Numbered from the stretch's first letter, positions 46 through 44,880 are shown. The stretch: DNA of 61,411 nt from Candidatus Veblenbacteria bacterium (GCA_037439965.1 JBBIVB010000002.1:1-61411), one strand, 5' to 3'. Numbers and translations are program-made. The notes: generated by a model from the sequence alone, not told the origin.

Positions 46-426
46 TTGTTTTGTAGCAGAGTATCTATACAACTAAAACTTATAAGTGGCGGTTTTGCTA
101 TACTTAAAGTTGTGCTATCTGACTTTTATCAAGCCGTATATAAGTTAGTTAAAAAAATACCTAAAGGCAAAGTAGCTACTTATGGACAAATAGCTAGTTT
201 ACTAGGTAAACCCAAAGCTGCACGATTAGTAGGTTGGGCGTTGGCAGTTTGTCCTCATAATATACCTTGGCAAAGAGTGGTGAATCGTGAAGGTATGATT
301 TCTATTGAAAATTTAAATTATCCAAAAGAATTGCAAGTAAAAATATTACAAAGTGAAGGGGTTAAAATTATAAAACAGAATAATAATTGGTGGATTGATC
401 TTAAAAAATATCTTTGGTCTAAATAA
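46..426 (+). CDS. MGMT-family DNA-binding protein without the acceptor cysteine (alkyltransferase-like, ATL)
   Basis: The translation contains YGQIASLLGKPKAARLVGWALAVCPHNIPWQRVVN. This is the MGMT helix-turn-helix, with PWQRV where the PCHRV active site normally sits (Cys replaced by Trp, as in ATL proteins). The real start may be the GTG at 112. Confidence 0.7.
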   Translation: MFCSRVSIQLKLISGGFAILKVVLSDFYQAVYKLVKKIPKGKVATYGQIASLLGKPKAARLVGWALAVCPHNIPWQRVVNREGMISIENLNYPKELQVKILQSEGVKIIKQNNNWWIDLKKYLWSK

Positions 427-430
427 AATT

Positions 431-1837
431 ATGTCTTTAGGTGTTAAACTTACTTTAAATACTTTAGTACAATTAGCGGGTAAATTTTTATCTGTGCTGT
501 TAGGTTTGGCTATAGTTGCTATTATGACTCGCTCTTTAGGTACAGAAGGTTTTGGCCAATACACTACTATCGTGGCTTTTTTGCAACTGGCTGGCATCCT
601 GGTTGATTTAGGGTTGACTGTTACTGCCGGTAAGTTGATCGGGCAAGTGAGTAATGATGAAAATAAATTTTTAAGTAATTTATTTAGTTTTCGTGTTTTA
701 ACTTCGCTAATAGTTTTTAGTTTAGCGCCTTTAGTTGCTTGGTTTTTTCCATATCCTCTGGTGGTCAAAATTGGTATTATTTTAGCAAGTTTATCTTTTT
801 GGGCAGCTTCAGTAGCTCAAACTTTTAGCGCAGTGTTTCAAAAATATTTATGCACACACTGGTTTGTTTTGGCAGAAATTATTGGACGGTTAGTTTTATT
901 AATATTGGCTGTTTGGGCAGCTTTTATTTGGGGCGGGTTAATAATGTTTATTTTGGCAGTAGTGGTTGGCAGTTTAGTTAATCTATTATTAGTTTTGTAC
1001 TTCAGTCGACGTTTGGTAGTGTTTGGTTGGGAAATAGATGTAAAGTATTGGCAAAAAATTTGGCATGAGACCTGGCCGGTAGCTATAACTATTGCTTTGA
1101 ATTTGGTTTATTTTAAAGCTGATACAGTAATTTTATCAATCTATCGTCCCCTGGCAGAAGTAGGAATTTATGGAGCTAGCTATAAAGTATTGGAAGTTTT
1201 ATTAGCCATACCTACTATTGTAGGTGGTTTATTGTTGCCTTTTGTAGCTTCGTTATTATTACAACAAGCTTTAATACAAGTTAAAAAATATTATCAGATA
1301 GGAATTGATAGTATGTTAATTTGTGGCTTAGGATTAATAGCCGGTAGTTTAGCAGTTGGGCCACAAGTGATGGCTTGGTTGGCTGGTGGTAATTTTTATT
1401 TAGCCGGAGAAGTATTAAAAGTAGTTTCATTGGCCACAGCTTTGATTTTCTTGGGTAATTTAACAGGCTATTTTATTTTATCTTTAGGTAAACAAAAAAT
1501 GATAATTAAGTATTATGCTATAGCTGCCACACTTTCTTTAGTTGGTTATTTTGTATTTATTCCTCAATACAGTTATTGGGCAGCTGCCTGGGTAACGGTG
1601 GTTATAGAGGGTTTTATGGCTTTAACTAGTTTTTGGATAATACGCCAAGAATTGCCTCTTAATATCACCCGCTGGCCTAAAATTTTTGTAGCTGCTGCAG
1701 GGTTTTATTTAATTTTATATTTATTAGCCAGCTGGCCTTTATTATTTAAACTAATTTTTGCGGTAGTATTATATTATTTGTTGTTATCATTGCTTAAGAT
1801 AGTTCCTAGAATAAAATTCATTAAGCGGGAGGTATAA
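431..1837 (+). CDS. MOP-superfamily polysaccharide / lipid-linked oligosaccharide flippase (Wzx/MurJ-like)
   Basis: About 14 hydrophobic segments. The N-terminus MSLGVKLTLNTLVQLAGKFLSVLLGLAIVAIMTRSLGTEGFGQY is typical of polysaccharide biosynthesis proteins. I chose the ATG at 431 over 395 because 395 overlaps the upstream gene. Confidence 0.65.
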   Translation: MSLGVKLTLNTLVQLAGKFLSVLLGLAIVAIMTRSLGTEGFGQYTTIVAFLQLAGILVDLGLTVTAGKLIGQVSNDENKFLSNLFSFRVLTSLIVFSLAPLVAWFFPYPLVVKIGIILASLSFWAASVAQTFSAVFQKYLCTHWFVLAEIIGRLVLLILAVWAAFIWGGLIMFILAVVVGSLVNLLLVLYFSRRLVVFGWEIDVKYWQKIWHETWPVAITIALNLVYFKADTVILSIYRPLAEVGIYGASYKVLEVLLAIPTIVGGLLLPFVASLLLQQALIQVKKYYQIGIDSMLICGLGLIAGSLAVGPQVMAWLAGGNFYLAGEVLKVVSLATALIFLGNLTGYFILSLGKQKMIIKYYAIAATLSLVGYFVFIPQYSYWAAAWVTVVIEGFMALTSFWIIRQELPLNITRWPKIFVAAAGFYLILYLLASWPLLFKLIFAVVLYYLLLSLLKIVPRIKFIKREV

Positions 1838-1845
1838 TTAAAATT

Positions 1846-3156
1846 ATGATTATCTCTTGGTTTTATTTATTAATACCCCTTTTATTTTTAGCTTGGTTTT
1901 ATTGGAGCAAGCCTAATTTAGCCGTTGCTTTAGTAGCGGCTTTAGCGCCTACTTATTTAATTAAAAGTTCAATCAGCTTTATACCCACAACTTTTTTAGA
2001 GTTAGCCATTTATGTTTTGATTTTAGTGGAAATAATAAAATATTTATTTAATAAAAAATTTCCCGATCAAGAATTGGTGATTAAATTTAAACCTCTATTT
2101 TGGCCAATTATTATTTGGCTTGCAGTAGCGTTACTGGCGGTTTTATTTTCTTCTGACTTGCGTTTAAGTTTAGGAGTATGGAAAGGCTGGTTTGTTGACC
2201 CAATTTTATTTTTATTTATTTTACTAATTAATATTAAAAATTCCACTGATTGGTTAAGAACAGCAATTGGTTTATTTGTTAGCGCCAGTTTTATTTCAAG
2301 TTTTGGTTTATTAGAATATTCGCTTGGTCAGGGTTTAAGGAGCGATGGTTTATTAAATTCAGTTTATGAGCCAGCTAATTATGTTGCTATGTTTACTATT
2401 CCTATAATATTTTTAGGTATAACTTTAGCTTTACTCACCCAAGATAAAAAAATCAAATATCTTTATTGGTTGCTGCTGCTGGTAAATATTTTAGCTTTAT
2501 ACTATACCAAATCTTATGGTGGTTATTTAGCTTTGGTGGTGGGTTTGCTATTTTATTTGATAATGTATAGCCGACAGAGTATTAAAGCCAGAAAATATTT
2601 ATTAGTATCAGGCATGATTTTAATCTTTTTAGTAAGCGCAGTAGTTAGTTCTCAAGCTAAATTTCAAAACTATTTTAAAAGCAGCGGCCGAACTTCTATT
2701 TCTACTCGCCAGCAAATTTGGTGGACTTCTATTTTACTTATTAAAGAAAAAACATTATGGGGTTGGGGATTGGGAAATTTTCAGGAGAGTTATCGCTCTC
2801 GCGTAAAACAAATTTATCCTAAACCTTTGGAATGGAATGTAGTTAAAGCTCACAACCTTTATTTAAATTTATGGATTGAAATGGGAATTTTAGGTTTATT
2901 AGCGTTTTTGTATTTGATAATAAAAATATTTTCTATATTACGAAGTGAATTAGAAACTGAAATAAAAGAAAGAAAATTATTTATAGCTTCTTTAATAAGT
3001 GCCTTAGTAGCCATTTTAGTGCATGGGTTAGTAGATACTCCATATTTTAAGAATGATTTATCTTTAGTGTTTTTTATTTTTGCTGGATTGATATTATTAT
3101 TAAAGCATTATCAGAATTGGCAGTTGTTAGTGGATTATAAAAAAGAGTTGACTTAA
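1846..3156 (+). CDS. O-antigen ligase / Wzy_C-domain polytopic membrane protein
   Basis: More than 10 TM segments, plus the loop motif KAHNLYLNLWIEMGILGLLAF characteristic of WaaL / O-antigen polymerase / PglL-type proteins. Confidence 0.6.
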   Translation: MIISWFYLLIPLLFLAWFYWSKPNLAVALVAALAPTYLIKSSISFIPTTFLELAIYVLILVEIIKYLFNKKFPDQELVIKFKPLFWPIIIWLAVALLAVLFSSDLRLSLGVWKGWFVDPILFLFILLINIKNSTDWLRTAIGLFVSASFISSFGLLEYSLGQGLRSDGLLNSVYEPANYVAMFTIPIIFLGITLALLTQDKKIKYLYWLLLLVNILALYYTKSYGGYLALVVGLLFYLIMYSRQSIKARKYLLVSGMILIFLVSAVVSSQAKFQNYFKSSGRTSISTRQQIWWTSILLIKEKTLWGWGLGNFQESYRSRVKQIYPKPLEWNVVKAHNLYLNLWIEMGILGLLAFLYLIIKIFSILRSELETEIKERKLFIASLISALVAILVHGLVDTPYFKNDLSLVFFIFAGLILLLKHYQNWQLLVDYKKELT

Positions 3157-3176
3157 GATAATTCTTTTCTTATAAT
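3148..3176 (+). promoter_or_regulatory. sigma70-type promoter TTGACT-17 nt-TATAAT
   Basis: TTGACT lies at 3148-3153 and TATAAT at 3171-3176 with an exact 17-nt spacer. It overlaps the stop codon of the upstream ORF and sits about 97 nt upstream of tRNA-Ser. Confidence 0.55.
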
Positions 3177-3272
3177 AATCTGACTTTTTGGGGGAACTTA
3201 AGAGTTTTCGCACTAGAGCAAAGCATAGTGTGGGGTAAAGGTTTAAGATAAAAAACTTGCCCCGTATAGAGT

Positions 3273-3362
3273 GGAGGAGTGGCCGAGTGGTTGAAGGCGC
3301 AGGTCTCGAAAACCTGTTGGGGAGAAATCCTCTCGTGAGTTCGAATCTCACCTCCTCCGCCA
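3273..3362 (+). tRNA. tRNA-Ser (anticodon CGA), CCA encoded
   Basis: The 7-bp acceptor stem is GGAGGAG/CTCCTCC. The anticodon arm is CAGGT-CTCGAAA-ACCTG. There is a long variable arm, a T arm GTGAGTTCGAATCTCAC, and discriminator G followed by CCA. Confidence 0.9.
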
Positions 3363-3438
3363 GTTTACAATTTTAGATTTATGAAATAACTTTACCATTT
3401 TATTTTTAGTGGTTTTGTGATATTCTAAAATTAGTTTT

Positions 3439-4305
3439 ATGAGCAAAATTCGTAAACTAGTTATTCCGGTAGCGGGTTTTGGAACCCGCTTTTTACCAGT
3501 TACTAAAGCTATACCTAAAGAAATATTGCCAGTAGTAGATAAACCAATAATTCAATACGTAGTAGAGGATGCAGTAGCATCAGGTATTACCGATATTATC
3601 TTAGTCACTAGCCCTGCCAAACAGGTGATAGAGGAATATTTTAGTCTTAATTCGGAATTAGAAAATTGGCTAATCAAGAATAGTAAAGAAGAATTAGCCA
3701 AAGAAATAAATAAAATTTCCAAGTTAGCTAATTTTATTTTTATTAAACAGCAAGGCCCTTATGGTAATGGTACGCCTGTATTATGTGGTAAAGATTTAGT
3801 AGGTAATGAACCTTTTGCTGTGATGTGGGGAGATGAATTTTTTTATACCCCACAAAAACCCCATTTAGCTCAGTTGATCGAGGTTTTTGAAGAATTTAAT
3901 AGCACCATTTTAACTGCCCATTTGGTAGATGATGAAGGGACTACAAAATATGGTATACTAGAAGCAAGAGAAGTTAAAAATAAAGTTTATCAAATTAACA
4001 ATATTATAGAAAAACCAGAGCCCTGGAATACCCCATCACATTTAGCTAGTTTAGGAGGATTTATTTTTACACCAGATATTTTTTTTGCACTCGCTCATAC
4101 CAAAATTGGTAAAGGTGGAGAATTATGGCTGGTGGATGCTGTAGTCCAATTATTAAAAACACATTCAGTTTACGCCAAGTTAGTAGAAGGAGAATACTAT
4201 GACACTGGTTCTAAATTTGGCTGGCTTAAAGCTAATGTGGAATTAGCCTTAAAACATCCTGACTTGGCAAAAGATTTTAAAAATTATTTACAAAATTTTA
4301 AATAG
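3439..4305 (+). CDS. galU: UTP--glucose-1-phosphate uridylyltransferase
   Basis: The N-terminus KLVIPVAGFGTRFLPVTKAIPKEILPVVDKPIIQYVVEDA is the canonical GalU signature. Confidence 0.9.
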   Translation: MSKIRKLVIPVAGFGTRFLPVTKAIPKEILPVVDKPIIQYVVEDAVASGITDIILVTSPAKQVIEEYFSLNSELENWLIKNSKEELAKEINKISKLANFIFIKQQGPYGNGTPVLCGKDLVGNEPFAVMWGDEFFYTPQKPHLAQLIEVFEEFNSTILTAHLVDDEGTTKYGILEAREVKNKVYQINNIIEKPEPWNTPSHLASLGGFIFTPDIFFALAHTKIGKGGELWLVDAVVQLLKTHSVYAKLVEGEYYDTGSKFGWLKANVELALKHPDLAKDFKNYLQNFK

Positions 4306-4316: not shown

Positions 4317-5762
4317 ATGTTTAGATGGAAAATCTATCCGTTCCGGGCGGATTCCGCTTCAAAGATAAAAGATGCCACGAATGTAAATCGATGGTCGCTT
4401 TATTTATTAATCTTAATCATTCCGGTTTTATTACTCGCTGGTTGTAAATTTTTTCCAAGTAAAACGACAAAACAAGCAAATAAACCGGTAAATTTAGTTT
4501 ATTGGCGTGTGACTGGTCAAGATGAACAAAAAGATTTAGCCGCTATTATATCTGATTATATCAGTAACCATCCCCAAGTATCAATTAATGTGAAATATGT
4601 CCGGGCTGAAGAATTTGATCAGAAACTTTTATATGCCTGTGCTACTCATAATTGTCCTGATATTATATCGTTGCCTATAGCTAAATTGCATAGTTGGGTA
4701 GATCTACTTTCGCCTTTACCAGATAAAGTTGAGGTTCCTTATGTTACTATAGAAGGTTGGAAAAAAGACCAAGTGGTTCATCTAGGTGTTACTAAATCGC
4801 CAATGCCTAGCCAATTAGATAAATTATTTACTGATACGGTGGCTAGAGATGTAGTAATTGATGGTAAAATTTATGGTTTACCACTCGCTCTAGATACTAT
4901 TGTGATGTACTATAATAAAGATTTATTAAATAAAGCTAATATTTCTGAAGTAGCTCAAGATTGGATAACTTTTAAAGAACAAGCGGCTAAAATATCTTTG
5001 GTTGATAGGAAAGGAAATTTTATCCAGCATGCCGCGGCTTTAGGAGAAGCGGATAATATTCCTTTGGCTTTTGAATTATTATCTGCTTTAATGATGCAAA
5101 ATGGTACACCTATGACTAATGAGCAGGGTACGCGTGCCACCTTTGACCAGGAAATATCAGTCGGTGGCGAGAGATTTGTGCCGGGAGAAGACGCTTTGCG
5201 TTTTTATCTTGATTTTTCCAATCCCATTAAAGAAGTATATTCTTGGTCAGCTGAAGAGACGAGTGCACAAGACGCTTTTATTGCTGGGCGGTTGGCTTAT
5301 TATTTTGATTACTTTTCTGAATATAAGAAAATTAAAGAGTTAGCGCCGAGACTTAATATTGGTATAACTAGTTTTCCCCAAATCAGTTTGCAAAGTCAGC
5401 CAGTGTATTATGCAGATTATTATGTAGAAGCAGTTCAGATAGATAGTCAAGCTAAACAGGAAGCTTGGGATTTTATTCTGTTTGCTACTACTAAAAAAGA
5501 AGAGAATACTAAATATTTAGAGAGTTCTGGTAAATTAACAGCTTTGCGTTCACAAATTGATAAGCAGAAAGAAGATTTTGAATTAGAACCAGGAGCAAAA
5601 CAACTGCTTAATGCTAAAACTTGGTATCGTGGTTATGATATAGCAGCTACCAAGCAAGCTTTCTTATCAATGATTAGACAAGCTAAATCCGGTACCCACC
5701 TAATAGATGCTTTAAGTTTAGCTACCCGCCAGGTTAATATTACTTTTTCTAAATTAAGATAA
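4317..5762 (+). CDS. extracellular solute-binding lipoprotein (sugar-type ABC substrate-binding protein family), orphan
   Basis: Lipobox LLLAGC. An SBP_bac_1-like N-lobe is present (LVYWRV...ISNHPQVSINVKYV...KLLYACATHNCPDII). No permease or ATPase gene is adjacent. Confidence 0.55.
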   Translation: MFRWKIYPFRADSASKIKDATNVNRWSLYLLILIIPVLLLAGCKFFPSKTTKQANKPVNLVYWRVTGQDEQKDLAAIISDYISNHPQVSINVKYVRAEEFDQKLLYACATHNCPDIISLPIAKLHSWVDLLSPLPDKVEVPYVTIEGWKKDQVVHLGVTKSPMPSQLDKLFTDTVARDVVIDGKIYGLPLALDTIVMYYNKDLLNKANISEVAQDWITFKEQAAKISLVDRKGNFIQHAAALGEADNIPLAFELLSALMMQNGTPMTNEQGTRATFDQEISVGGERFVPGEDALRFYLDFSNPIKEVYSWSAEETSAQDAFIAGRLAYYFDYFSEYKKIKELAPRLNIGITSFPQISLQSQPVYYADYYVEAVQIDSQAKQEAWDFILFATTKKEENTKYLESSGKLTALRSQIDKQKEDFELEPGAKQLLNAKTWYRGYDIAATKQAFLSMIRQAKSGTHLIDALSLATRQVNITFSKLR

Positions 5763-5807: not shown

Positions 5808-6284
5808 ATGTTTTTTACTCGTCGCTCGAAAATAATTTTAATAGTCTTAATAATTATTTCAGTAGGTTTTTTAGCTCAAATAGCTTGGGCAGCAGAGTTT
5901 AATATTGTCAATGGAATAGTTGGTAGTTTAAGTAATGAAGAATGTATAGAAAAAGGCAATTGTGATTTTTGCGATTGGATAAATTTATTTGTAGTTTTAG
6001 AAAAAGTTATTTTATCGTTATTTGGCGGTTTGGCTTTGGTATTAATGGTTTGGGCTGGCCAAAGTTTTATTACTGCTGCTGGTAATCAAGAAAAAATAGC
6101 TCAAGCCAAAAGATTAATGACCTCTACTATTTTTGGTGTAGTAATTATTTTGGCTGGTTATTTTTTGGTTAATATTTTAATTGGCATATTAGTTACACCA
6201 TCAAAACAGCCTCTTAGTAAAAATATTTTTGGTCAACCTTGGGTTGAAGCACTGTGTCCGCCAAAAAAACCAACTAAAACCTGA
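5808..6284 (+). CDS. TrbC/VirB2-like T4SS pilin-module protein
   Basis: Signal/TM segment, then two hydrophobic helices separated by the shared loop motif: LVLMVWAGQSFITAAGNQEKIAQAKRLMTSTIFGVVIILAGYF. The ORF ends at a TGA that is in frame with the next gene. Confidence 0.65.
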   Translation: MFFTRRSKIILIVLIIISVGFLAQIAWAAEFNIVNGIVGSLSNEECIEKGNCDFCDWINLFVVLEKVILSLFGGLALVLMVWAGQSFITAAGNQEKIAQAKRLMTSTIFGVVIILAGYFLVNILIGILVTPSKQPLSKNIFGQPWVEALCPPKKPTKT

Positions 6285-6392
6285 AAAGGTAAATGCGTTT
6301 ATCGTCTTTGCATCCTGGCTGACGAGAAATATGGTGAAAGAGGAGTATGCAAGGAACAAGGTTATTCATGTTGCATAAAAAATAAAGAGAAT

Positions 6393-7391
6393 ATGAGAAA
6401 TATAAGATGGCTATTAATTTTATTTATTATTCTATCGCCACTGCCGGCGCTGGCATTAAAATTACAAAATCCTTTAGGTATTGCTGGCGACCCGAGAGAA
6501 ATTTTTGCTCGTTTAACAGGGGGGTTAGCATCGTTTACCGGAATTTTGGCTTTGGTATTTTTTATTTTAGGAGGCTACCGAATTTTAACCGCTGCTGGTA
6601 ATAGCGAACATTTTGCCAAAGGTAAAACAATGATTTTATATTCAGTGGTAGGTTTTGTTATTACTTTGAGTAGTTACTATATTTTGTTTCAAGTAATTAG
6701 TATTTTAACAGATAAAGATACTTTAACTGGTTTTACTACTAAGCCAGGACTATTTGATCCTTTAAATTTAGATATTAGTTGTTCTAATATGAGAGTTGCC
6801 TTTTATAGCGGGCGGATTTTAAGATCTTTATTATCTGGTTTGGGGGGATTAACTTTATTAATGTTTGTTTATGGTGGATTACAGTGGATGTTAGCCGCAG
6901 GCAATGAGGAAAAAATTATCAAAGCTAAGAAAACTATAATGTATGCTATTTTAGGTTTAGCAGCAGTTTTAGGCAGTTATGTAATTTTGAAATTTGCCTA
7001 TTTACCGTTTTATCAGTTATTAGGCGGGGGTTCTGCCAGCAGTACCTGCAGTACTAGTACAGCAGATAGTCAAGGTAATCATGCCTGTTTTGATTTAGAT
7101 GGTTATTGTATAGATACATCTCAACTTGCTTGTACTAAAATAGGCGGCAGTTTTTATGCTGGCAATACCTGCAATGAAGTTGGTTGTTGTGTACAAAATA
7201 AAGCTTGTATTACAGGCCAAACACCAGCTAGTCAGTTTGTTACTTCTGCTGATGATTGTGTGCCTTATATATTTACATCTTGTTATGCCGGTTTACCGCC
7301 ATCAGGACTTTGTATGGGTTCAGAAGATTATAGTTATGATGGCCAATGTTATAGTCAAGTAACTTTTCAGGCTGGTCAAAAATGCCATTAA
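6393..7391 (+). CDS. double pilin-module protein with a cysteine-rich C-terminal domain
   Basis: Two copies of the module are present (GGYRILTAAGNSEHFAKGK and YGGLQWMLAAGNEEKIIKAKK). They are followed by about 115 aa containing more than 15 Cys. Confidence 0.65.
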   Translation: MRNIRWLLILFIILSPLPALALKLQNPLGIAGDPREIFARLTGGLASFTGILALVFFILGGYRILTAAGNSEHFAKGKTMILYSVVGFVITLSSYYILFQVISILTDKDTLTGFTTKPGLFDPLNLDISCSNMRVAFYSGRILRSLLSGLGGLTLLMFVYGGLQWMLAAGNEEKIIKAKKTIMYAILGLAAVLGSYVILKFAYLPFYQLLGGGSASSTCSTSTADSQGNHACFDLDGYCIDTSQLACTKIGGSFYAGNTCNEVGCCVQNKACITGQTPASQFVTSADDCVPYIFTSCYAGLPPSGLCMGSEDYSYDGQCYSQVTFQAGQKCH

Positions 7392-7393
7392 AC

Positions 7394-7422
7394 TTGTCTT
7401 AATAGTTAATATGTGTTATAAT
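7394..7422 (+). promoter_or_regulatory. extended -10 promoter (TTGTCT-17-TATAAT with TG at -15/-14)
   Basis: TTGTCT at 7394-7399, TGTTATAAT at 7414-7422. It lies upstream of the pilin gene, which has the strong SD AAAGGGGGTGA. Confidence 0.6.
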
Positions 7423-7460
7423 TATATAATTGAACTTAGTAAATCTTAAAGATAAAGAAA

Positions 7461-7855
7461 GGGGGTGAATATATGAAAAAATTAATTAATTCAGCTGTAA
7501 TTGCCGGTTTGTCTTTGGCTCCTACTTTAGCCCTTGCTCAAACTAATGGTGGTCTTAGTAATCTAGAGGGGGGCAATCTTAACCTCGGTACTAATTTGGA
7601 TTTAATTCAGACCATTGGTCAAATTATTAACTTCCTATTGGGCTTTTTGGGAGTCATAGCATTAGTGTTAATTCTGTACGCTGGTTTCTTATGGATGACC
7701 GCTGCGGGTAATGAAGAGAATATAGCTAAAGCTAAGAAAATTATAGGCGCTGCAGTAATTGGCTTGGTGATTATTTTAGCTGCTTTCGCTATCGCCAACT
7801 TCATTATTAGTAACTTGTCTCAGAGTTTGAACGCTAATATTTAGTTTTATATTTT
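7461..7855 (+). repeat. 395-bp direct repeat, copy A (SD + pilin CDS + 11 nt)
   Basis: Manual alignment shows it is identical to 7950..8344. The period is 489 bp. Confidence 0.85.
7473..7844 (+). CDS. TrbC/VirB2-like pilin (probable major pilin), copy 1
   Basis: Signal peptide MKKLINSAVIAGLSLAPTLALA, then LILYAGFLWMTAAGNEENIAKAKKIIGAAVIGLVIILAAFAIANF. The SD GGGGGTGA lies 6 nt upstream of the ATG. Confidence 0.75.
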   Translation: MKKLINSAVIAGLSLAPTLALAQTNGGLSNLEGGNLNLGTNLDLIQTIGQIINFLLGFLGVIALVLILYAGFLWMTAAGNEENIAKAKKIIGAAVIGLVIILAAFAIANFIISNLSQSLNANI

Positions 7856-7861
7856 TTAATC

Positions 7862-7896
7862 AAAACCCCGCTCTTTATAAAGGACGGGGTTTTGTT
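7862..7896 (+). terminator. rho-independent terminator after pilin copy 1
   Basis: AACCCCG (7864-7870) pairs with CGGGGTT (7885-7891), followed by TTTGTT. Confidence 0.6.
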
Positions 7897-7949
7897 ATAT
7901 AGTTTATTAAGTTATAATTAAAAGGCAGATATTTAAAGTATAAGTAAAG

Positions 7950-8344
7950 GGGGGTGAATATATGAAAAAATTAATTAATTCAGCTGTAATTGCCGGTTTG
8001 TCTTTGGCTCCTACTTTAGCCCTTGCTCAAACTAATGGTGGTCTTAGTAATCTAGAGGGGGGCAATCTTAACCTCGGTACTAATTTGGATTTAATTCAGA
8101 CCATTGGTCAAATTATTAACTTCCTATTGGGCTTTTTGGGAGTCATAGCATTAGTGTTAATTCTGTACGCTGGTTTCTTATGGATGACCGCTGCGGGTAA
8201 TGAAGAGAATATAGCTAAAGCTAAGAAAATTATAGGCGCTGCAGTAATTGGCTTGGTGATTATTTTAGCTGCTTTCGCTATCGCCAACTTCATTATTAGT
8301 AACTTGTCTCAGAGTTTGAACGCTAATATTTAGTTTTATATTTT
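7950..8344 (+). repeat. 395-bp direct repeat, copy B
   Basis: Identical to 7461..7855. The sequences upstream and downstream of the block diverge. Confidence 0.85.
7962..8333 (+). CDS. TrbC/VirB2-like pilin, copy 2 (identical to copy 1)
   Basis: The protein is identical to 7473..7844 in the ORF track. On manual comparison the DNA is also identical across the CDS. Confidence 0.75.
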   Translation: MKKLINSAVIAGLSLAPTLALAQTNGGLSNLEGGNLNLGTNLDLIQTIGQIINFLLGFLGVIALVLILYAGFLWMTAAGNEENIAKAKKIIGAAVIGLVIILAAFAIANFIISNLSQSLNANI

Positions 8345-8360
8345 GTATTCTACTTATTTT

Positions 8361-8392
8361 TAATCCCGCTCCTTATATAAGGAGAGGGATTA
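8361..8392 (+). terminator. stem-loop after pilin copy 2
   Basis: TAATCCCGCTCCTTA pairs with TAAGGAGAGGGATTA (15-bp arms, one mismatch). No clear downstream T-run. Confidence 0.4.
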
Positions 8393-8452
8393 AAACTTTA
8401 AATTTATATTCTAGTATGGTATATCTAGTTTAGATTGAAATATTGATTTTAT

Positions 8453-8878
8453 ATGGATTTTGATATGCACCTTATTTTCTTTAGAAAATATTATTTAGCT
8501 GTTCCAATTAGTTTATTAGTTTTTGGTTTATTTTTGTTAAGCCAACCTAGCTTGGTATTAGCGCAATCACCAGGTGATTTTGGATTGAAAACTACAGCTC
8601 AAACTGCTGGATTATCTATTAGCTCTACAAATCCAATTAAAATAGTAGGAAATATTATTAATTATTTGCTTGGTTTCTTAGGAGTAATTTTTTTAGGCTT
8701 AATAATTTATGCCGGATTCTTATGGATGACTGCTTCAGGCAACAGCGAACAAGTGCAGAAAGCTAAAGAATTAATAGGTAACGCAGTTGTTGGTTTAATA
8801 ATTATTTTGGCCGCCTTTGCTATTTCAACCTTTGTTTTTAGTAATCTAAAGATAGCTACTGGCGGAGCTGGTATTTAG
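8453..8878 (+). CDS. TrbC/VirB2-like pilin paralog
   Basis: LIIYAGFLWMTASGNSEQVQKAKELIGNAVVGLIIILAAFAIS. An N-terminal hydrophobic signal is present. Confidence 0.7.
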   Translation: MDFDMHLIFFRKYYLAVPISLLVFGLFLLSQPSLVLAQSPGDFGLKTTAQTAGLSISSTNPIKIVGNIINYLLGFLGVIFLGLIIYAGFLWMTASGNSEQVQKAKELIGNAVVGLIIILAAFAISTFVFSNLKIATGGAGI

Positions 8879-9271
8879 ATGATAAATAAAAATACAACAT
8901 ATTTATTACTCACTTGGCTATTTAGCATCGCTATTGTTTTTTGTTTATTATCCACCCCAGTTATAGCCGCTGTCTGCTCGGATGATATTGGTTTGTGTCA
9001 AGCTGCTGGTTGGGTAATACCAACAGGCGTGCCTACCCCCGTAGCTATTCTGGGTGCAATTATTAGATTAATTTTAGGTATAGTAGGAGTAATATTTTTT
9101 ATAATGATTTTATATGCTGGATATAATTGGATGACTGCAGCCGGCAATGAGGAAAAAATTAGGAGTGCTAAAATAATCATAGCTCACGCTACTATAGCTT
9201 TAGCGATTATTTTAGGTTCTTATGTTGCTGTGAATTTTGTTTTAACCAATTTACAGCAATCGATGCGATAA
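8879..9271 (+). CDS. TrbC/VirB2-like pilin paralog
   Basis: MILYAGYNWMTAAGNEEKIRSAKIIIAHATIALAIILGSYVAV. The ATG directly follows the TAG of the upstream gene. Confidence 0.7.
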   Translation: MINKNTTYLLLTWLFSIAIVFCLLSTPVIAAVCSDDIGLCQAAGWVIPTGVPTPVAILGAIIRLILGIVGVIFFIMILYAGYNWMTAAGNEEKIRSAKIIIAHATIALAIILGSYVAVNFVLTNLQQSMR

Positions 9272-9358: not shown

Positions 9359-10321
9359 ATGAGAATTCTTATCACCGGAATATTAGGTTTTGTTGGTAGC
9401 CATTTAGCTGAGTATTGTTTAGCTAAAGGGGATGTTGTTATAGGAACCATGAAAACACCAAATGATAAATTTGATAATCTTTTGCCACAAATTAGAAACC
9501 AGGTTGCCATACTGGAGTGTGAATTAACCGATTATAAAAACGTTCTAGATGTAATTAAAGAAACAAATCCTGACATTATTTTTCATTTAGCAGCACAAAG
9601 TTTTGTTCCTACCAGCTGGAAAAGCCCCTCGGAAACTATTGTTAACAATGCTGTTTCACAAATAAATATTCTGGAAGCTGTTAGAAAACTTAATCTAAAT
9701 CCAGTGATTCATGTAGCTTGTAGCAGCGAAGAATATGGTTTGGTTAAAGAAAATGAGTTACCTATTAAGGAAACAAACCCCTTACGTCCCCTTTCACCTT
9801 ATGCTGTAAGTAAAGTAACCCAAGAAATGTTGGCTTATCAATATCATCAAAATTATGGTTTACGCATTGTGATTACTCGTGCCTTTAATCACGAAGGTCC
9901 GCGGAGGGGAACGCAGTTTGTAACCGCAGATTTTGCTAAACAACTGGCTGATTTACCAGCTGCTGGCGGTGATATTATTGTTGGAAATCTAGATTCTTTT
10001 AGAGATTATACTGATGTAAGAGATGTGGTGCGCGCTTATTATGAAGCAACAACGAATAAAAACATTAAATATGGTGAACCTTACAATATTTGTTCTGGTC
10101 AAACTTGGCAAATTCGCAGAGTATTAGAAGTGCTTATTAAGATAAGCGGCAAAAAGGTAAATATTATACAGGATCCTAAACGCTTACGCCCATCGGATGT
10201 TCAACGCCTACAGGGTGATTTTTCTAAATTTCACTTAGCTACCGGCTGGCAGCCCAGTATTGATTTTAATAAAACACTTCAAGATATCTATCAATACTTT
10301 GTGGATAAGAAATTAGCCTAG
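9359..10321 (+). CDS. NAD-dependent sugar-nucleotide epimerase/dehydratase (GDP-mannose dehydratase / Rmd-like SDR)
   Basis: Rossmann motif ITGILGFVGSHL and catalytic YAVSK (YxxxK). The C-terminal LRPSDV...ATGWQP is typical of extended SDRs. Confidence 0.7.
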   Translation: MRILITGILGFVGSHLAEYCLAKGDVVIGTMKTPNDKFDNLLPQIRNQVAILECELTDYKNVLDVIKETNPDIIFHLAAQSFVPTSWKSPSETIVNNAVSQINILEAVRKLNLNPVIHVACSSEEYGLVKENELPIKETNPLRPLSPYAVSKVTQEMLAYQYHQNYGLRIVITRAFNHEGPRRGTQFVTADFAKQLADLPAAGGDIIVGNLDSFRDYTDVRDVVRAYYEATTNKNIKYGEPYNICSGQTWQIRRVLEVLIKISGKKVNIIQDPKRLRPSDVQRLQGDFSKFHLATGWQPSIDFNKTLQDIYQYFVDKKLA

Positions 10322-10403
10322 TAAATGTAAATAATACTTATAATTCCACTTATAATCCTAAGTTATAGTTTGGTTATTTTATAATATTTATCTAGAATTT
10401 TAA

Positions 10404-11114
10404 TTAATTCCTGAAATTACGCCGTAATCTTATTAGGGTATAAAAAAATTCAATAATATCTCTCAAGGATAGTTTTGACCGTCCTTGTTTTCTATCTACA
10501 AAAGTAGTTGGCACTTCTACAATTTTTAAATTAGCCTTTTCACTTAGATAAGCTAATTCTTCTAGCCAGGCATAGCCAGAACTTTTAACTTGCTGCCAGG
10601 GAATGGTAGCTAAGGCTTTTTTAGAGTAGAGGCGAAAACCAGCTGTTATATCTTTAGTTTTTAATCCCAAAATTAATCGTGCCGCAATCATAGCCAACCA
10701 GCTGGTTAAATGGCGATACCATGGCCAGCCATTAATTTTTCCACCTTTTATTCTTCTTGAGCCAATAACAACATCAGCTCCTTGTTCCAGCGCTTTAAAC
10801 AACTTTGGTAAATCTTCTGGCTGATGAGACAAATCAGCATCCATTTCACCTACTGCTTCAGCGCCTTGACTTTGCGCCCAAGCAAAACCAGCGCGATATG
10901 CCTCCCCTAAACCTTGTTTATCTTTTCTTTGTAAAAGATTTAGCCAAGGATATTTTTTTTGAAGTTCTATAACTAAAGCAGCTGTTCCATCGAGCGAGGA
11001 ATCGTCAACTATTAGTACTTGGCAATCAGATGTCATTACTTTATCTAATCGTGCCATTAGTTCTAATAAATTATCAGCCTCGTTGTAAGTTGGAATCACT
11101 ATTATGATTTTCAT
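10404..11114 (-). CDS. polyprenol-phosphate mannose synthase (GT2, Dpm1/Ppm1-like)
   Basis: IVIPTYNEADNL, LIVDDSSLDGT, GLGEAYRAGF and MDADLSHQPEDLPKL all match the Dpm1-type GT2 pattern. Confidence 0.8.
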   Translation of the reverse strand: MKIIIVIPTYNEADNLLELMARLDKVMTSDCQVLIVDDSSLDGTAALVIELQKKYPWLNLLQRKDKQGLGEAYRAGFAWAQSQGAEAVGEMDADLSHQPEDLPKLFKALEQGADVVIGSRRIKGGKINGWPWYRHLTSWLAMIAARLILGLKTKDITAGFRLYSKKALATIPWQQVKSSGYAWLEELAYLSEKANLKIVEVPTTFVDRKQGRSKLSLRDIIEFFYTLIRLRRNFRN

Positions 11115-12414
11115 AAATAGATGGATTGAATTTTAGTAAATTAAATTTACAGGTAAGATAAATTAAATAACCAACCATTATTACCAACAAACTAGTTCTT
11201 ATTAGCGTTAAACTATTATAAGGCAGCGTTTTATAAATGTATATTTTAAAACTACCAAGCAATGGCCATAATAAATAATTTAGTAAATCGTAGGGTATAA
11301 TAATATTACCTAAATAGTAATTAGGAACAACAGTAATGATTGTTGGTAAGAACCATAAAATCCATTGCGGTGAATAAAATTTATTAAAGAGGATAAACAA
11401 TAAAATAATTAAATTGAACAAGATGATTATACCGTTGGTATTTACCACCCATCTTTTTTTGGATATTAGTCCATAGATTATTACTAGAGGTATGGCCAAT
11501 TGTATTAGTAGAAAAATTAAGTTTGTCACCCAAGGGTAGTAAAAACCTAAATGATAAAGAGCCCTTAAAGGACTGCCAACAGTAGGTTCTCTGAAAATAT
11601 GTGCTAGATAAGGTCCTAGAGTGGGGATAATTCCCGTCCAAGTAGCACATGATATTAAAGGTATAAATAAAGTTAAGGCGGTGATGGTAATCAGAGGAGA
11701 TAATTTTTGTTGATTATTTTTGGCAACCAATAAATATAAAGGCAAAAGTAATATTGGATAAACCTTTGTTAGAATAGCTAACGTTAAAGTAAAAAAACTT
11801 AGCTTATAATATTTATTTAATAAAAATATTAAAGACCAAATAGTTATAGTTGTTGGTAAAATATCATAGCGATTAAAGGTGAAGAAGATGAATGAAGGTA
11901 GGATGATTAGCCATAAAATACGCCGTTGATTTTGTTGATTTATTTTTAATAATAATCTGGTACCTAATAATAAAGACAGTAAACACAGAGCATTACTAGT
12001 AAACATTAACCAACGATAAGTTTCAAAATTATTAGCAAAGAATGATGGTATAGTAAAGTAAGTCAGGGCTAATTGCGGATATTCTACTGGTGGTATAAAA
12101 ACTTGCCAGGAATTATCTTTGAAAGTAAAAAATGATCCATAATAAGGCTTAATTCCTTGACGCCACCAGTTAGCTTCGCGCCAATATACCGCCATATCCC
12201 AATCCTCAATGATTAAGGGGATGCCTTTGTCGCCAGCTTGACCATTTAAAAAAGGAAAATGTTTTGGCAATAAGGAAGCCAATAAGAAAAATAAGCTAGT
12301 GACAATTAACCACCAGATTACAGTTTGTTTAATTTCGTGGTGATTTAATTTAGTTGGAGTGGAATTATGGTTTTGTTCGAGCGGAGCAGTTAATTTTAAA
12401 GGAAGATCGGACAT
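11074..12414 (-). CDS. polytopic GT-C-type membrane glycosyltransferase candidate
   Basis: More than 10 TM segments. It sits immediately upstream of, and overlaps, the polyprenol-P-mannose synthase gene. No soluble domain is present. Confidence 0.4.
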   Translation of the reverse strand: MSDLPLKLTAPLEQNHNSTPTKLNHHEIKQTVIWWLIVTSLFFLLASLLPKHFPFLNGQAGDKGIPLIIEDWDMAVYWREANWWRQGIKPYYGSFFTFKDNSWQVFIPPVEYPQLALTYFTIPSFFANNFETYRWLMFTSNALCLLSLLLGTRLLLKINQQNQRRILWLIILPSFIFFTFNRYDILPTTITIWSLIFLLNKYYKLSFFTLTLAILTKVYPILLLPLYLLVAKNNQQKLSPLITITALTLFIPLISCATWTGIIPTLGPYLAHIFREPTVGSPLRALYHLGFYYPWVTNLIFLLIQLAIPLVIIYGLISKKRWVVNTNGIIILFNLIILLFILFNKFYSPQWILWFLPTIITVVPNYYLGNIIIPYDLLNYLLWPLLGSFKIYIYKTLPYNSLTLIRTSLLVIMVGYLIYLTCKFNLLKFNPSIYENHNSDSNLQRG

Positions 12415-12439
12415 AATATTTATTAAATTATGTTTTTTG

Positions 12440-14023
12440 TTATTTAATAGAAAATATTATTGCTGAATCATCTTGATATACTTCACTAAATCTAGTATCA
12501 CGATTAAGGTAGCGTAGCATATCAGGTCGTCTGGTTTCTAATAACAGCCAATCTGCTCGAAAAATATCTTTAGCCACGTAGTAAATATCCGGCCGTTTTC
12601 CTTTAGTGGCATTTACCCAAGCCCAGTATTTATCCTGATCATATTCATACATAAATGTTTGGTCTAAACCCGTGAGATAATAATTATGCAAATTATTATA
12701 AAATAACAAAGGGAAAGTTCCCCAATCAGATTGGAAAACAATACTATGTAAATTAGTGTTTTGGGCAAGCCAATTACTAGCAGCAGATAAATGTGAGATA
12801 GGAAAAGCTTGGCGTAAACCCGTATAAGCTGTCATCGGTCCGCGGCTTAAACCCAAAGGTATGGTGGCTACCAAGAAGAAAAACATAAAACCAGCAAAAG
12901 TTTTTCCTTTCAAAACTTGGGGTAGCCAAGATTTAAACTCCTGCCAGAAAATTTTTATATTTTCTTTAAGGGAAGCATCTCTTAATATTAAAGCCGTTGA
13001 TATTACTAGCCAGGGAACCAGGTATTCAATTTGTCTTCTGGCCCTGGTTGCATAAATAAAGAAAATAAAGGTAATAAGTAAAGCAGTAATAGTTTCCTTG
13101 CTTTGTTTTTTGATAGTCTTAAAGAATAGAACAAACGCCGCGACCAATATTAATAACAAAACAGCAATTTTTTCAATTAAATCAGGAAAGGCGTAAGGAT
13201 ACCATTCGGCGCCAATGCCTATAATTTTAGAGTAATTAATTAAAGCCATACTAAAGAGCTGTTTTAAATAAAGCAGATTAGTAGGAAAATAAGGATTGAT
13301 TATTAGGCCGCTAGTTATGCCAGCGATTGCCGATAGCCATAAGTTGGTATAAGGGGGCGCTATTAGTATTTTTAAATAATTTTTAACAAAATTTTTAAAT
13401 TTCAAACCTGCCAAATTCGTTATTTTTATAAAATCGTACCAGCTGGATACTAAAGTATAAGCAAATAACATTAAAAGTATGGTAGGCCAGGCAGCGTAAA
13501 ACCAAACAAATAACCAACTGTAGATAAATAGCCATCCCTTGCGTTTGGTAATAATTAAATAAAAACCCAAGATAGATAGGCCGATTGATAAAGAAGGCGC
13601 TTTAACTAGACTTAAACGGAAAAGTAGGGTAGCGTTGGTTAATAGTAATAGTAACCAAAAGTAAAGCCAGGAGGTTTTTAATTTGTGCAATAACCAAATT
13701 ATTATTAGAATAGAAAAACTAGCAAAGAAAATAGTCGCTAATTTGGCCCCCACTAGGGGATTGCCTAAACTTACGAACGGGATTAAGATGAGATGATATA
13801 AAAAATGGTAGTCAATAAAAAATACTTTATATAACGCATCTTGGGTCCAAGGAAATTCCCGCAAAATACCATAATCACGCATCATTAAACTAAGTTTGGT
13901 ATGGTAAAAAGAGTCCGGATCAGCTAAAGTCGGGCTGCTTTGCAGCCAGGTAAAAATAGTTAAGGTGATGATTATAGCCAGAAAGATATTCCATCGCTTG
14001 CTTAAAGGGAGTGCTAGTTTCAT
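12440..14023 (-). CDS. polytopic GT-C-type glycosyltransferase candidate (STT3/PMT/ArnT-like)
   Basis: The first loop carries ADPDSFYHTKL, which resembles the DxD/DPxFxY loop of STT3-type transferases. There are more than 10 TM segments and a C-terminal soluble domain. Confidence 0.4.
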   Translation of the reverse strand: MKLALPLSKRWNIFLAIIITLTIFTWLQSSPTLADPDSFYHTKLSLMMRDYGILREFPWTQDALYKVFFIDYHFLYHLILIPFVSLGNPLVGAKLATIFFASFSILIIIWLLHKLKTSWLYFWLLLLLTNATLLFRLSLVKAPSLSIGLSILGFYLIITKRKGWLFIYSWLFVWFYAAWPTILLMLFAYTLVSSWYDFIKITNLAGLKFKNFVKNYLKILIAPPYTNLWLSAIAGITSGLIINPYFPTNLLYLKQLFSMALINYSKIIGIGAEWYPYAFPDLIEKIAVLLLILVAAFVLFFKTIKKQSKETITALLITFIFFIYATRARRQIEYLVPWLVISTALILRDASLKENIKIFWQEFKSWLPQVLKGKTFAGFMFFFLVATIPLGLSRGPMTAYTGLRQAFPISHLSAASNWLAQNTNLHSIVFQSDWGTFPLLFYNNLHNYYLTGLDQTFMYEYDQDKYWAWVNATKGKRPDIYYVAKDIFRADWLLLETRRPDMLRYLNRDTRFSEVYQDDSAIIFSIK

Positions 14024-20487: not shown

Positions 20488-21246
20488 GTGCCTATTAATC
20501 AAGAGCCAAATTATGAACCAAATTATAAATCAGAACAGCGTATTTATGCTGTCTTATTTATAGTAATGTTAGGGGCTTTGGTTTTAGGTTGGTGGCAGAT
20601 AAATAATGACATTTACCTGCCATTTAGTTGGTTAAAAAATAAACCAGTAGTCAATTCAGATAATCTTATTACCGATGAGCAGGGAATTTTGCTTACTAAA
20701 GATACTGATAATGATGGCTTGTCTGATTATGATGAATTATATCTTTATGGCACCAGTCCTTATTTACAAGATACAGATTCTGATGGCTATCCTGATAAAA
20801 CAGAAATAGAAACCTCTCACGACCCCAACTGTACCGCTAATCAAACCTGTCTTAAAGCTAAAATAAGTTTTACTGAAGGAACAAAACGCCCGCAGACCAT
20901 AGCTGAACTTAGACAGACATTAAAAGAAGCTGGAATACCAGATGAACAGTTAAATTCTATTGATGATGCTACTTTGCTTGAAGTTTTTAATGAAGTAGTG
21001 CAGGAAGTTGGAGTGACCGTACCCGTAAATGGTGAACAGCCTGTTAATACTAATACTAATTCTACTACCGAAGGTTTTGCCTCGGAGCAGGTGAATCTAA
21101 CCGAAGAACAGAAACAGTTATTAAAAAACATGTCAGGCGCGGAATTGAGAACCTTTTTAAAACAGAGTGGCGTTACTTCATCGGAATTAGATCAAATTGA
21201 CAATGATACGCTTAAAACAATCATTAATCAAACTCTAGGATTGTGA
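20488..21246 (+). CDS. membrane-anchored protein with thrombospondin type-3-like Ca-binding repeats
   Basis: One N-terminal TM segment. DTDNDGLSDYDE and DTDSDGYPDKTE are Dx[DN]xDG-type repeats. GTG start. Confidence 0.6.
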   Translation: MPINQEPNYEPNYKSEQRIYAVLFIVMLGALVLGWWQINNDIYLPFSWLKNKPVVNSDNLITDEQGILLTKDTDNDGLSDYDELYLYGTSPYLQDTDSDGYPDKTEIETSHDPNCTANQTCLKAKISFTEGTKRPQTIAELRQTLKEAGIPDEQLNSIDDATLLEVFNEVVQEVGVTVPVNGEQPVNTNTNSTTEGFASEQVNLTEEQKQLLKNMSGAELRTFLKQSGVTSSELDQIDNDTLKTIINQTLGL

Positions 21247-21326
21247 AAGTAGAATCTGTAAGCTAGAATTTAGAATACTGTTATGCTTAATTTATTTTAG
21301 CATTTAGATTTCGAAACAAGTTCGGA

Positions 21327-21355
21327 GTGACAAAATTCAAAATTATTTTTATTTT
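21327..21355 (+). promoter_or_regulatory. candidate promoter GTGACA-17-TATTTT
   Basis: GTGACA at 21327-21332 and TATTTT at 21350-21355. The same hairpin, (G/A)TGACA box and U-rich leader arrangement recurs at 38518. Confidence 0.35.
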
Positions 21356-21387
21356 TCATTTTGATTTTTACATTTTGATTTTGTAAC

Positions 21388-34605: not shown

Positions 34606-35082
34606 ATGCGGCAATTTGTAGTTCCACAATTTATAGATGTTGAGGATAAGATAATCGGCCCCATTACCACTAGACAATTTTTAATTATCTTAGCCGGTGG
34701 TTTGTCGCTATTTATCGAGTTTAAGCTATGCGATTTAATGTTATTTATTATTTTAGGAATTTTAACTATTGTTTTTACCTTAGCTTTTAGTTTCTTGAAA
34801 GTTAATAGTATGCCTTTGCATTTTTTTATAATAAATATTATCCAGACTTTTAAACGGCCAAAATTACGCGTTTGGGATAAAACACTTAACCCTAAGGAAA
34901 TTAAAGAGCTGCTTAATAAACAACAAGAGGAAGTAGTTGCTGTTACACCTCAAATTAAACCGCACGTAACCTTAACCCATTCACGCTTGCAGGAGTTATC
35001 TTTAATTGTAGATACCGGAGGAGCATATAAATCAGACAACGGGGAGTTAGAGGTAAAAGATACCAATGATAGAAAAATTTAG
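34606..35082 (+). CDS. PrgI-family (VirB3-like) small membrane protein
   Basis: The N-terminus MRQFVVPQFIDVEDKIIGPITTRQFLIILAGG is followed by two TM helices. This pattern is characteristic of PrgI family proteins encoded next to VirB4. Confidence 0.65.
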   Translation: MRQFVVPQFIDVEDKIIGPITTRQFLIILAGGLSLFIEFKLCDLMLFIILGILTIVFTLAFSFLKVNSMPLHFFIINIIQTFKRPKLRVWDKTLNPKEIKELLNKQQEEVVAVTPQIKPHVTLTHSRLQELSLIVDTGGAYKSDNGELEVKDTNDRKI

Positions 35083-40141: not shown

Positions 40142-40169
40142 TTGGTATTGTTATAATTATTAATGTGAT

Positions 40170-41435: not shown

Positions 41436-41470
41436 GTTAAAATTTATAAGTTAGAATTTGTAATATTGTT

Positions 41471-41506
41471 ATATTTTGTGTTAGCTATATATTTTGTGTT
41501 AGCTAT
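41471..41506 (+). repeat. perfect 18-bp tandem direct repeat x2 (ATATTTTGTGTTAGCTAT)
   Basis: Read directly: unit 1 is 41471-41488 and unit 2 is 41489-41506. Confidence 0.85.
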
Positions 41507-41530
41507 AGTATTAAGATTAACAGGGAATTT

Positions 41531-44872: not shown

Positions 44873-44880
44873 TCAAGCTT

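Follow-up and report, generated by a model that had tools for sequence, protein, structure and literature searches.

The stretch of DNA considered here (referred to as the window) is 61,411 nucleotides (nt) long and originates from Candidatus Veblenbacteria bacterium (GCA_037439965.1, JBBIVB010000002.1:1-61411). At positions 5808-9271 it harbors six open reading frames (ORFs) on the plus strand, with no other gene in between, which together carry seven pilin modules. The most probable interpretation, to which we assign a probability of about 0.78, is that these ORFs constitute a chromosomal array of paralogous VirB2-like pilin genes, part of a monoderm-type type IV secretion system (T4SS) in Patescibacteria (also named the candidate phyla radiation, CPR). 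The products would be assembled by a VirB4-driven machine into a filament or conduit, in which a pair of sister genes provides the bulk subunit while the other paralogs are specialised; we infer that a pilus is formed. The bacterium itself would be an ultra-small one that has not been cultivated.

One line of evidence for this interpretation is family membership. Each module is composed of two strongly hydrophobic stretches that flank a short conserved loop, AAGN-x-E-x3-KAK. A six-frame scan of the window with the loop motif [AS][AS]G[NSDT]x[EDQ] yielded nine occurrences in a hydrophobic coding context, seven of which are found in the array and the others at 39392 and 42121, i.e., within two more module proteins encoded at 38963-40141 and 41632-42873. 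Three extra matches in the window are all located in stop-riddled frames. A profile built from the modules recovered the same nine modules and none elsewhere in the window, which is far beyond chance. An earlier reading of this DNA, made without database searches (the sequence-only reading), had described six ORFs with seven modules, one of the genes carrying two, and nine modules in eight genes altogether; the coordinates, the six-frame scan and Pfam family PF18895 (T4SS_pilin) agree with this count, and all the peptide motifs that it quoted are present in the array ORFs.

All eight proteins score above the gathering cut-off of PF18895 (26.6 bits), with E values of 5e-6 to 5e-14. The scores are 27.0, 52.6 (two stretches), 36.5, 33.8 and 32.5 bits for the array and 28.8 and 35.5 bits for the two module proteins of the T4SS locus. 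Among the NCBIfam models, the best one for all modules is NF045849, which describes the pilin-like proteins Mbov_0395/MMCAP2_0565 of Mycoplasma integrative and conjugative elements (ICEs). The sister pair (41.6 bits) and the product of the gene at 8453 (40.2 bits) reach the curated cut-off of 40 bits, while the remaining module proteins score 17-35 bits. The likeness to the Mycoplasma ICE pilins is thus that two window proteins reach the cut-off and that the window VirB4 matches the Mycoplasma ICE VirB4 model. In contrast, six window proteins fall short of this score, the window shows no ICE context and encodes neither a relaxase nor an integrase, and its pilin locus is chromosomal, multi-copy and conserved.

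The 123-amino-acid (aa) sister pilin has more than 1300 relatives and, where the organism is given, it is almost always a member of the Patescibacteria; the names carried by these relatives are "pilin", "TrbC/VirB2 family protein" and "Mbov_0395 family pilin-like conjugal transfer protein". In 38 of 80 related loci the modules are found as 4-13 tandem same-strand copies, so that the seven modules of the window are ordinary. Many of the contigs concerned (L001, L004, L005, L010 and others) are labelled "uncultured Gammaproteobacteria bacterium" and carry typical Patescibacteria arrays with the same synteny; on these contigs the label looks wrong or like a placeholder.

Arrays of this kind have been described before. 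A search of 3035 genomes with PF18895 and PF04956 identified 441 arrays, each with 2-11 pilin genes, across 383 assemblies, and VirB2-like genes were found near virB4 in 1135 of 1948 assemblies (Quinonero-Coronel et al. 2025, PMC12102498). As defined in that study, an array contains at least two tandem pilin genes with at most one non-pilin gene between them, and the window array has this layout. Its genome is further that of a Patescibacterium with a Patescibacteria/monoderm-type VirB4, as in the published class (VirB4 of the CD1110 family, PrgI and homologs from Patescibacteria). A position near virB4, which is typical but optional for the class, is not seen in the window, where the last array gene extends to 9271 and virB4 begins only at 36003; of the modules, just the two in the larger proteins encoded at 38963 and 41632 are close to virB4. 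From the PF18895 scores, the tandem layout and the VirB4 it follows that the array belongs both to PF18895 and to the published class of Patescibacteria pilin arrays. In Ca. Southlakia epibionticum a pilin series is located within the T4SS cluster and is essential, a notable contrast to Gram-positive T4SSs (Wang et al., PMC10633639). A 2025 review (PMC12857230) repeats the finding of an essential pilin series and speculates on the pilus as a conduit. Because such arrays were published in 2023 and 2025, the kind of feature is already known, and what is new here, i.e., the link to a lipoprotein gene, the position-by-position orthology and the probable collapse of the sister pair in the assembly, all discussed below, amounts to modest additions. 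The sequence-only reading had set the expansion against classical T4SSs, in comparison with which it is unusual; in Patescibacteria it is the norm.

Like the published arrays (SEML1_0006-0019 of S. epibionticum ML1 and the 441 that were catalogued), the window array belongs to PF18895 and comes from the same phylum, consists of tandem paralogs on one strand that have little sequence identity with one another, and is accompanied by a VirB4/PrgI/TrsD machine of monoderm type with neither a relaxase nor a coupling protein in its vicinity. It differs in being located 25 kb upstream of the T4SS cluster, behind a lipoprotein gene, and in having one gene with two modules. The core modules of the window have a mean identity of 42 %, and include a near-identical pair, as compared to a published mean of 25 % and maximum of 54 %, a loose comparison given that the published values refer to whole proteins and a different set.

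A relation to the TrbC/VirB2 pilins of diderm bacteria is seen in the close orthologs, 43 of 82 of which match PF04956 (TrbC/VirB2) at E <= 0.01, with a best value of 1.8e-7. Combined with the PF18895 matches of all modules and the VirB4/VirB3-type machine encoded in the window, this result bears out the assignment to a VirB2/TrbC-like family that was made in the sequence-only reading. The N-termini display a hydrophobic signal-like segment that ends at a small-x-small site, as identified by a heuristic combining hydropathy and a site rule (AWA/AE, ALA/LK, ALA/QT, VLA/QS, VIA/AV, AQA/QP and VFA/DC, where the slash marks the site); a variable, exposed stretch is found between this segment and the first helix. 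An AlphaFold2 prediction for the sister pilin, based on 82 homologs, shows a leader helix, then a linker for which the prediction is poor (residues 22-43), and finally two helices (44-76 and 81-118) that are packed as a hairpin with a predicted local distance difference test score (pLDDT) above 90; the mature form gives an equal result. Hence, the arrangement by which TrbC/VirB2 proteins are recognised, i.e., a cleavable leader, two hydrophobic helices and a short loop, is found both by the heuristic and in the predicted hairpin. The diderm pilins of PF04956 (T-pilus, RP4-type) likewise have a long cleaved leader, two hydrophobic helices and a short polar or basic loop, and are small proteins partnered with VirB4, VirB3 and VirB6. 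They differ from the window proteins in being encoded by one gene rather than by many paralogs; the window host is a monoderm, and some of its copies harbor large extra domains. Taken together, sequence comparison offers moderate evidence for a VirB2-type pilin and makes homology to diderm VirB2 likely, while the predicted structure is neutral on this point.

It is highly improbable that the Pfam name is misleading and that the proteins belong to an unrelated family with two transmembrane segments, such as holin-like proteins, bacteriocin or immunity proteins, or small transporter subunits. Weak, sub-threshold matches to DUF898, FixQ and Cyt_bd_oxida_II, together with the presence of ATP synthase subunit c among the top fold matches, would be in line with such a family. 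However, these and all other Pfam matches are below cut-off and each is found in at most 16 of the 82 orthologs, as compared to 43 for TrbC. A search of PHROGs returned no holin, its single match being to a family of unknown function (E 0.004), and the window offers no phage or bacteriocin context. A holin-like or phage origin was therefore rejected on the basis of PHROGs and Pfam. The outcome that the sequence-only reading had named as speaking against a pilin, i.e., a profile or a structure that places the proteins in a holin-like or other family with two transmembrane segments, did not materialise, as neither database offers a competing family.

The paralogs have kept their identities across genomes. 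When the window array was compared position by position with that of a related locus, L002, the core identities on the diagonal were 78, 68, 63, 63, 63 and 51 %, as compared to 22-57 % off the diagonal. The value of 78 % refers to the 5808-6284 paralog and the first L002 module. L002 also has a two-module gene, the modules of which are 68 % and 63 % identical to those of the window, and a near-identical pair. The 8453 paralog is 63 % identical to L002 module 6, and the 8879 paralog is 51 % identical to L002 module 7 and 71 % identical to module 4 of a second related locus, L001. This positional orthology indicates that the paralogs predate the split of the window genome and L002 and have been retained since. 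Judged from these sequence comparisons, distinct specialised roles would fit better than fast antigenic variation.

Within the array, the ribosome-binding site AAGGGGGTGA precedes only the genes at 7473 and 7962, in accordance with the near-consensus Shine-Dalgarno sequence that the sequence-only reading had assigned to the duplicated gene alone. A strong site is kept in relatives (GAAAGGAGGTGA before both L002 copies and GAAAGGCGGTGA before one L001 copy), while the other paralogs have no strong ribosome-binding site in any of the three genomes, i.e., the window, L001 and L002. The conservation of this site is consistent with and supports the proposal, made already in the earlier reading, that the sister pair would encode the major (bulk) subunit. 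As to a promoter and a terminator of its own, also proposed for the duplicated gene, each copy is indeed followed by a strong hairpin, while the promoter at 7394-7422 is a consensus match only, in a region where such matches number 28 as compared to 16.8 expected. A scan of the region for consensus terminators gave no match because the T-runs are short; direct folding gives the strong hairpins listed in Table 1.

In the window assembly the two sister copies are identical over 395 nt (7461-7855 = 7950-8344), with differing flanks. Depths were taken from the contigs of the source run, a subsurface metagenome and the sole public run in which the sequence is found. Depths are 5.5-7.6 for the unique flanks and the spacer, 13.9 for the shared 5' part of the gene and 11.1 for the shared 3' part. 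The middle 235 nt are found in two equal-length forms, one of which (A) is that of the window. The outermost differences between the two forms are each found at a distance of exactly 31 nt from a contig end, as is characteristic of a bubble enclosed by shared sequence. Form B differs from form A by 42 substitutions and a compensating insertion and deletion, such that the frame remains open and 13 of the 123 residues are changed; residues Q73, G78, K83 and G86 of form B are common to L002 copy a. Because both forms are present at single-copy depth, the true copies probably differ at these 13 residues. The sequence data thus suggest that there is probably one copy per form and that the assembly used one form twice, which would make the copies about 89 % identical, in line with 90-91 % for the sister pairs of L001 and L002; alternatively, the two forms could reflect strain polymorphism. 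On account of the two forms, the depths and the residues shared with L002, assembly collapse was preferred as the best reading, and a recent perfect duplication was rejected as such. The tandem arrangement itself is real, because a spacer contig at single-copy depth (7826-7979) joins the end of copy 1 to the start of copy 2. Of the exact duplication noted earlier, the tandem pair therefore stands, while the perfect identity is probably an artefact of assembly. That the copies are identical at their ends and diverged in the centre points to gene conversion over part of their length.

Near-identical neighbors are found also elsewhere. Adjacent pilin genes that are 90-100 % identical in the core, sometimes as triplets, are seen in 9 of the 38 related arrays (e.g., L040 8310-9903, L012 8600-9839 and L036 3577-4800, as well as L057, L027, L020 and L072). 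Such recurrence may mean that the presumed major pilin gene has been duplicated or converted repeatedly, or it may be due to assembly collapse as in the window. A separate case is a 196-nt direct repeat, 98 % identical (39312-39507 and 42041-42236), which covers the pilin module of two otherwise different genes in the T4SS locus and suggests gene conversion confined to the module.

These repeats, the mosaic structure of the sister pair and the adjacent pairs of at least 90 % identity in related arrays could all be accommodated by antigenic or host-range variation, in which one expressed pilin is rewritten by segmental gene conversion from neighboring paralogs, as in some pathogens; the idea of variation or host range has already been raised for pilin arrays (PMC12102498). 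We nevertheless regard this explanation as very improbable. Every paralog is a complete gene with its own predicted signal peptide and there is no silent cassette, the order and identity of the paralogs are kept across genomes, which marks them as old and stable, and the run contains a single alternative form at single-copy depth, as two fixed copies would give. Among the reasons for the expansion that had been proposed in the sequence-only reading, antigenic variation is thus disfavored by the positional orthology, while functional specialisation or a mixed filament fits better. The virB2 clusters of Bartonella and Anaplasma (a comparison drawn in PMC12102498) resemble the window array as tandem amplifications of pilin genes in a T4SS used for host interaction. 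Those clusters are found in diderms and have been proposed to serve immune evasion in animals, whereas the window paralogs diverged long ago and have kept their positions, and their bearer presumably has a bacterial host.

A conserved partner of the array is the gene directly upstream, which encodes a solute-binding lipoprotein. A homolog of this lipoprotein is found directly upstream and on the same strand in 29 of the 32 arrays with a readable upstream flank. Seen from the lipoprotein side, 1-8 pilin modules come after each of the 16 Patescibacteria-type relatives (the labels of which include Paceibacter and Saccharibacteria, one each) and after none of 64 relatives from other phyla. A GalU-like homolog is located directly 5' of the lipoprotein gene in 22 of the 38 array loci and in 11 of 12 close loci, and in none of these 12 close loci is there a VirB4 within 8 kb of the lipoprotein-array unit. 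Among proteins of solved structure, the nearest relatives of the lipoprotein are ABC-type binding proteins for sugars or oligosaccharides; in the window, neither a permease nor an ATPase gene of an ABC transporter adjoins the lipoprotein gene. The gene is not mentioned in the main texts of PMC10633639 and PMC12102498. The lipoprotein probably works together with the pilin array. A further-reaching and rather doubtful idea is that the GalU-like, lipoprotein and array genes form one conserved unit, which in several lineages of Patescibacteria has stayed separate from the T4SS genes and which would build a filament or conduit coupled to a glycan-binding receptor. If true, this glycan-coupled unit would recognise host-surface sugars or take up host metabolites, a function undescribed for any T4SS pilin.

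In the other 42 of the 80 related loci the module forms the N-terminus of giant proteins rich in Cys, which have a median length of 905 aa and in some cases exceed 3400 aa. The giant module-headed genes are usually two and adjacent, with no T4SS gene within 10 kb, e.g., at L048 7166-15574 (887 and 1903 aa) and also at L032, L065 and L009. That loci with one or two modules are T4SS loci like the one at 38963-42873 was considered and rejected, because they have no VirB4, PrgI or VanY relatives and harbor the giant module-headed proteins instead.

Several observations weigh against the pilin interpretation. PF04956 does not match the five distinct array proteins of the window even at E <= 1. A Foldseek search with the predicted hairpin returned generic helical hairpins (e.g., ATP synthase subunit c) at best E values of 0.65-0.78 and no pilin among the top 50, two-helix hairpins being a weak target for the method, and searches of PDB sequences with two profiles and one ortholog also gave no pilin; in these respects the window proteins differ from diderm TrbC/VirB2. 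Because the Foldseek matches are generic, the fold is compatible with a pilin and no proof of one. A distance of 25 kb separates the array from the T4SS genes, and the gene to which it is linked is instead one for a solute-binding protein. In the cited papers the pilus is a possibility only, and no filament of these proteins has been seen in any Patescibacterium; the sole public run that holds the sequence is a DNA run. Furthermore, giant surface proteins begin with this module as well, so that it could serve as an anchor of a general kind.

According to the latter explanation, which we consider unlikely, the PF18895 module is a general, non-polymerising device for membrane anchoring or display, and the short "pilins" are envelope proteins with two transmembrane segments that act with the lipoprotein and not with the T4SS, e.g., to capture sugars or to organise the envelope. 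The giant proteins of the 42 loci, the fusions in the window to a VanY peptidase and to Cys-rich domains, the linkage of the array to the lipoprotein gene rather than to virB4 and the generic hairpin fold would all be expected of such a device. Extra outer domains are, however, compatible also with a filament, and an anchor does not account for the sequence similarity of the orthologs to TrbC/VirB2, the essential pilin series inside the T4SS cluster of Ca. S. epibionticum or the VirB2-like genes near virB4 in the 1135 assemblies (PMC12102498).

In the favored interpretation, i.e., that of a pilin array, the prepilins would be exported by Sec and cleaved by signal peptidase, after which the mature pilins would be stored in the membrane, their short basic loop facing the cytoplasm. 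A VirB4/VirB3/VirB6-like machine would then extract and polymerise them into a short filament or conduit where the cell touches its bacterial host. Most of the subunits would come from the sister pair (7473 and 7962), presumably translated strongly, and the divergent paralogs, including the two-module gene and the forms with Cys-rich domains, would be minor or specialised subunits, with possible roles in initiation, at the tip or in adhesion.

The features discussed are collected in Table 1. In the array, the modules of the two-module protein are encoded at 6483-6716 and 6783-7019 and are followed by a Cys-rich C-terminal domain with 14 Cys. The 8453-8878 paralog is 62 % identical to the sister pair, and the ATG of the 8879 gene is found immediately 3' of its stop. 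Gene 1 stops at an in-frame TGA (6282-6284), which is followed by 36 open Cys-rich codons up to the ATG of gene 2, in the same frame; the end of the 6282-6392 stretch, GVCKEQGYSCC, resembles the C-terminal end GLCPGDNYQVCC of the longer L002 ortholog. The TGA could be a premature stop, a sequencing error at a depth of about 7x, or a site of read-through.

Table 1. Features of the window; positions are counted from its first nucleotide.
Feature	Position	Strand	Evidence
NTP_transferase (GalU-like sugar-nucleotide pyrophosphorylase)	3439-4305	+	Pfam PF00483 E 1.4e-26
Solute-binding lipoprotein SBP_bac_1/8, lipobox LLAGC	4317-5762	+	Pfam PF13416, PF01547
Pilin paralog 1, 158 aa, module FITAAGNQEKIAQAKR	5808-6284	+	PF18895 27.0 bits; signal-like AWA/AE
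Two-module pilin-like protein, 332 aa, 4 hydrophobic helices	6393-7391	+	PF18895 E 5e-14, 2 stretches
Sigma-70-like promoter match TTGTCT-17-TATAAT with extended TG	7394-7422	+	10/12 positions, consensus match only
Sister pilin copy 1, 123 aa, candidate major subunit	7473-7844	+	PF18895 E 5.2e-9; NF045849 41.6
Stretch with two forms in the source run	7578-7812 (equivalent 8067-8301)	+	A = window form, depth 7.7; B, depth 6.1
Terminator-like hairpin 3' of copy 1, then UUUUGUU	7857-7897	+	dG -18.7 kcal/mol, z -4.95, 0/200 shuffles as stable
Sister pilin copy 2	7962-8333	+	identical to copy 1 in window assembly
Hairpin 3' of copy 2 (palindrome)	8358-8395	+	dG -20.8 kcal/mol, z -5.89
Pilin paralog, 141 aa, WMTASGNSEQVQKAKE	8453-8878	+	PF18895 E 3.5e-8
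Pilin paralog, 130 aa, WMTAAGNEEKIRSAKI	8879-9271	+	PF18895 E 8.9e-8
993-aa polytopic membrane and coiled-coil protein	29794-32775	+	no Pfam or useful NCBIfam match
PrgI (VirB3-like)	34606-35082	+	PF12666 E 4.2e-7, 30.8 bits vs cut-off 27
TrsD-like protein, 227 aa	35276-35959	+	NF045975 positions 99-233 E 5.7e-11; NF041427 TrsD E 5.9e-7; both below curated cut-offs
VirB4-like conjugal-transfer ATPase, 625 aa	36003-37880	+	NF045971 CD1110 family 343.6 bits vs cut-off 325; PF19044 E 6e-29
392-aa Cys-rich protein, internal pilin module	38963-40141	+	PF18895 E 1.3e-6; 21 Cys; signal-like AQA/QP
Pilin module fused to VanY/M15 D-Ala-D-Ala peptidase domain	41632-42873	+	PF18895 E 1e-8, PF02557 E 3e-7, PF01427 E 4e-6

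The array is set among envelope-glycan genes (395-4305 and 9359-14023). Upstream are genes for a Polysacc_synt flippase-like protein, a Wzy_C O-antigen-ligase-like protein, the NTP_transferase and the solute-binding lipoprotein. Downstream are those for a GDP-mannose-dehydratase-type enzyme and a family-2 glycosyltransferase, and two large polytopic proteins without a Pfam match are also encoded among these genes. The guanine-cytosine content of the window is 32-42 %, and the best match of its leucyl-tRNA synthetase is from Candidatus Uhrbacteria (64 %).

The T4SS genes are found further downstream, with PrgI starting 25.3 kb and VirB4 26.7 kb past the end of the array, and about 23 ORFs located before virB4. 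The figure of 12 kb from the ATPase locus that was given in the sequence-only reading is the distance to a giant gene at 21388 and does not refer to virB4. This gene belongs to a region just upstream of the T4SS genes (20488-29553) that encodes, in this order, a protein of 252 aa containing a bacterial TSP3 repeat and a Cys-rich secreted protein of 2721 aa. The latter, the product of the gene at 21388, harbors a CBM_4_9 carbohydrate-binding domain and no pilin module. From its position and hydrophobicity, the product of 29794-32775 is a possible extended VirB6-like channel subunit. VirB4 is apparently split, as the TrsD-like protein matches the N-terminal part of VirB4 profiles and the 625-aa protein constitutes the ATPase part. 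The VanY-fused protein is a plausible candidate for a cell-wall remodelling subunit that is anchored by its pilin module and stands in for the missing VirB1-type hydrolase. Genes for RadA-like, methylpurine-DNA-glycosylase and RecG proteins (42984-47610) adjoin the T4SS genes, matching the association of radA and recG with T4SS genes that has been reported for class ABY1 (PMC12102498).

The above observations leave the published picture unchanged and narrow the hypotheses that are worth testing. Patescibacteria constitute a large share of bacterial diversity and live attached to other bacteria. Their T4SS, pilin series included, was the first for which essentiality to the carrier bacterium itself was demonstrated. 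The window offers a clean, well-flanked example of such an array from a little-studied lineage, and it provides three leads, i.e., positional conservation of the paralogs, which points to a division of labor, a paralog pair with the marks of the bulk subunit, and a lipoprotein gene that almost always heads such arrays.

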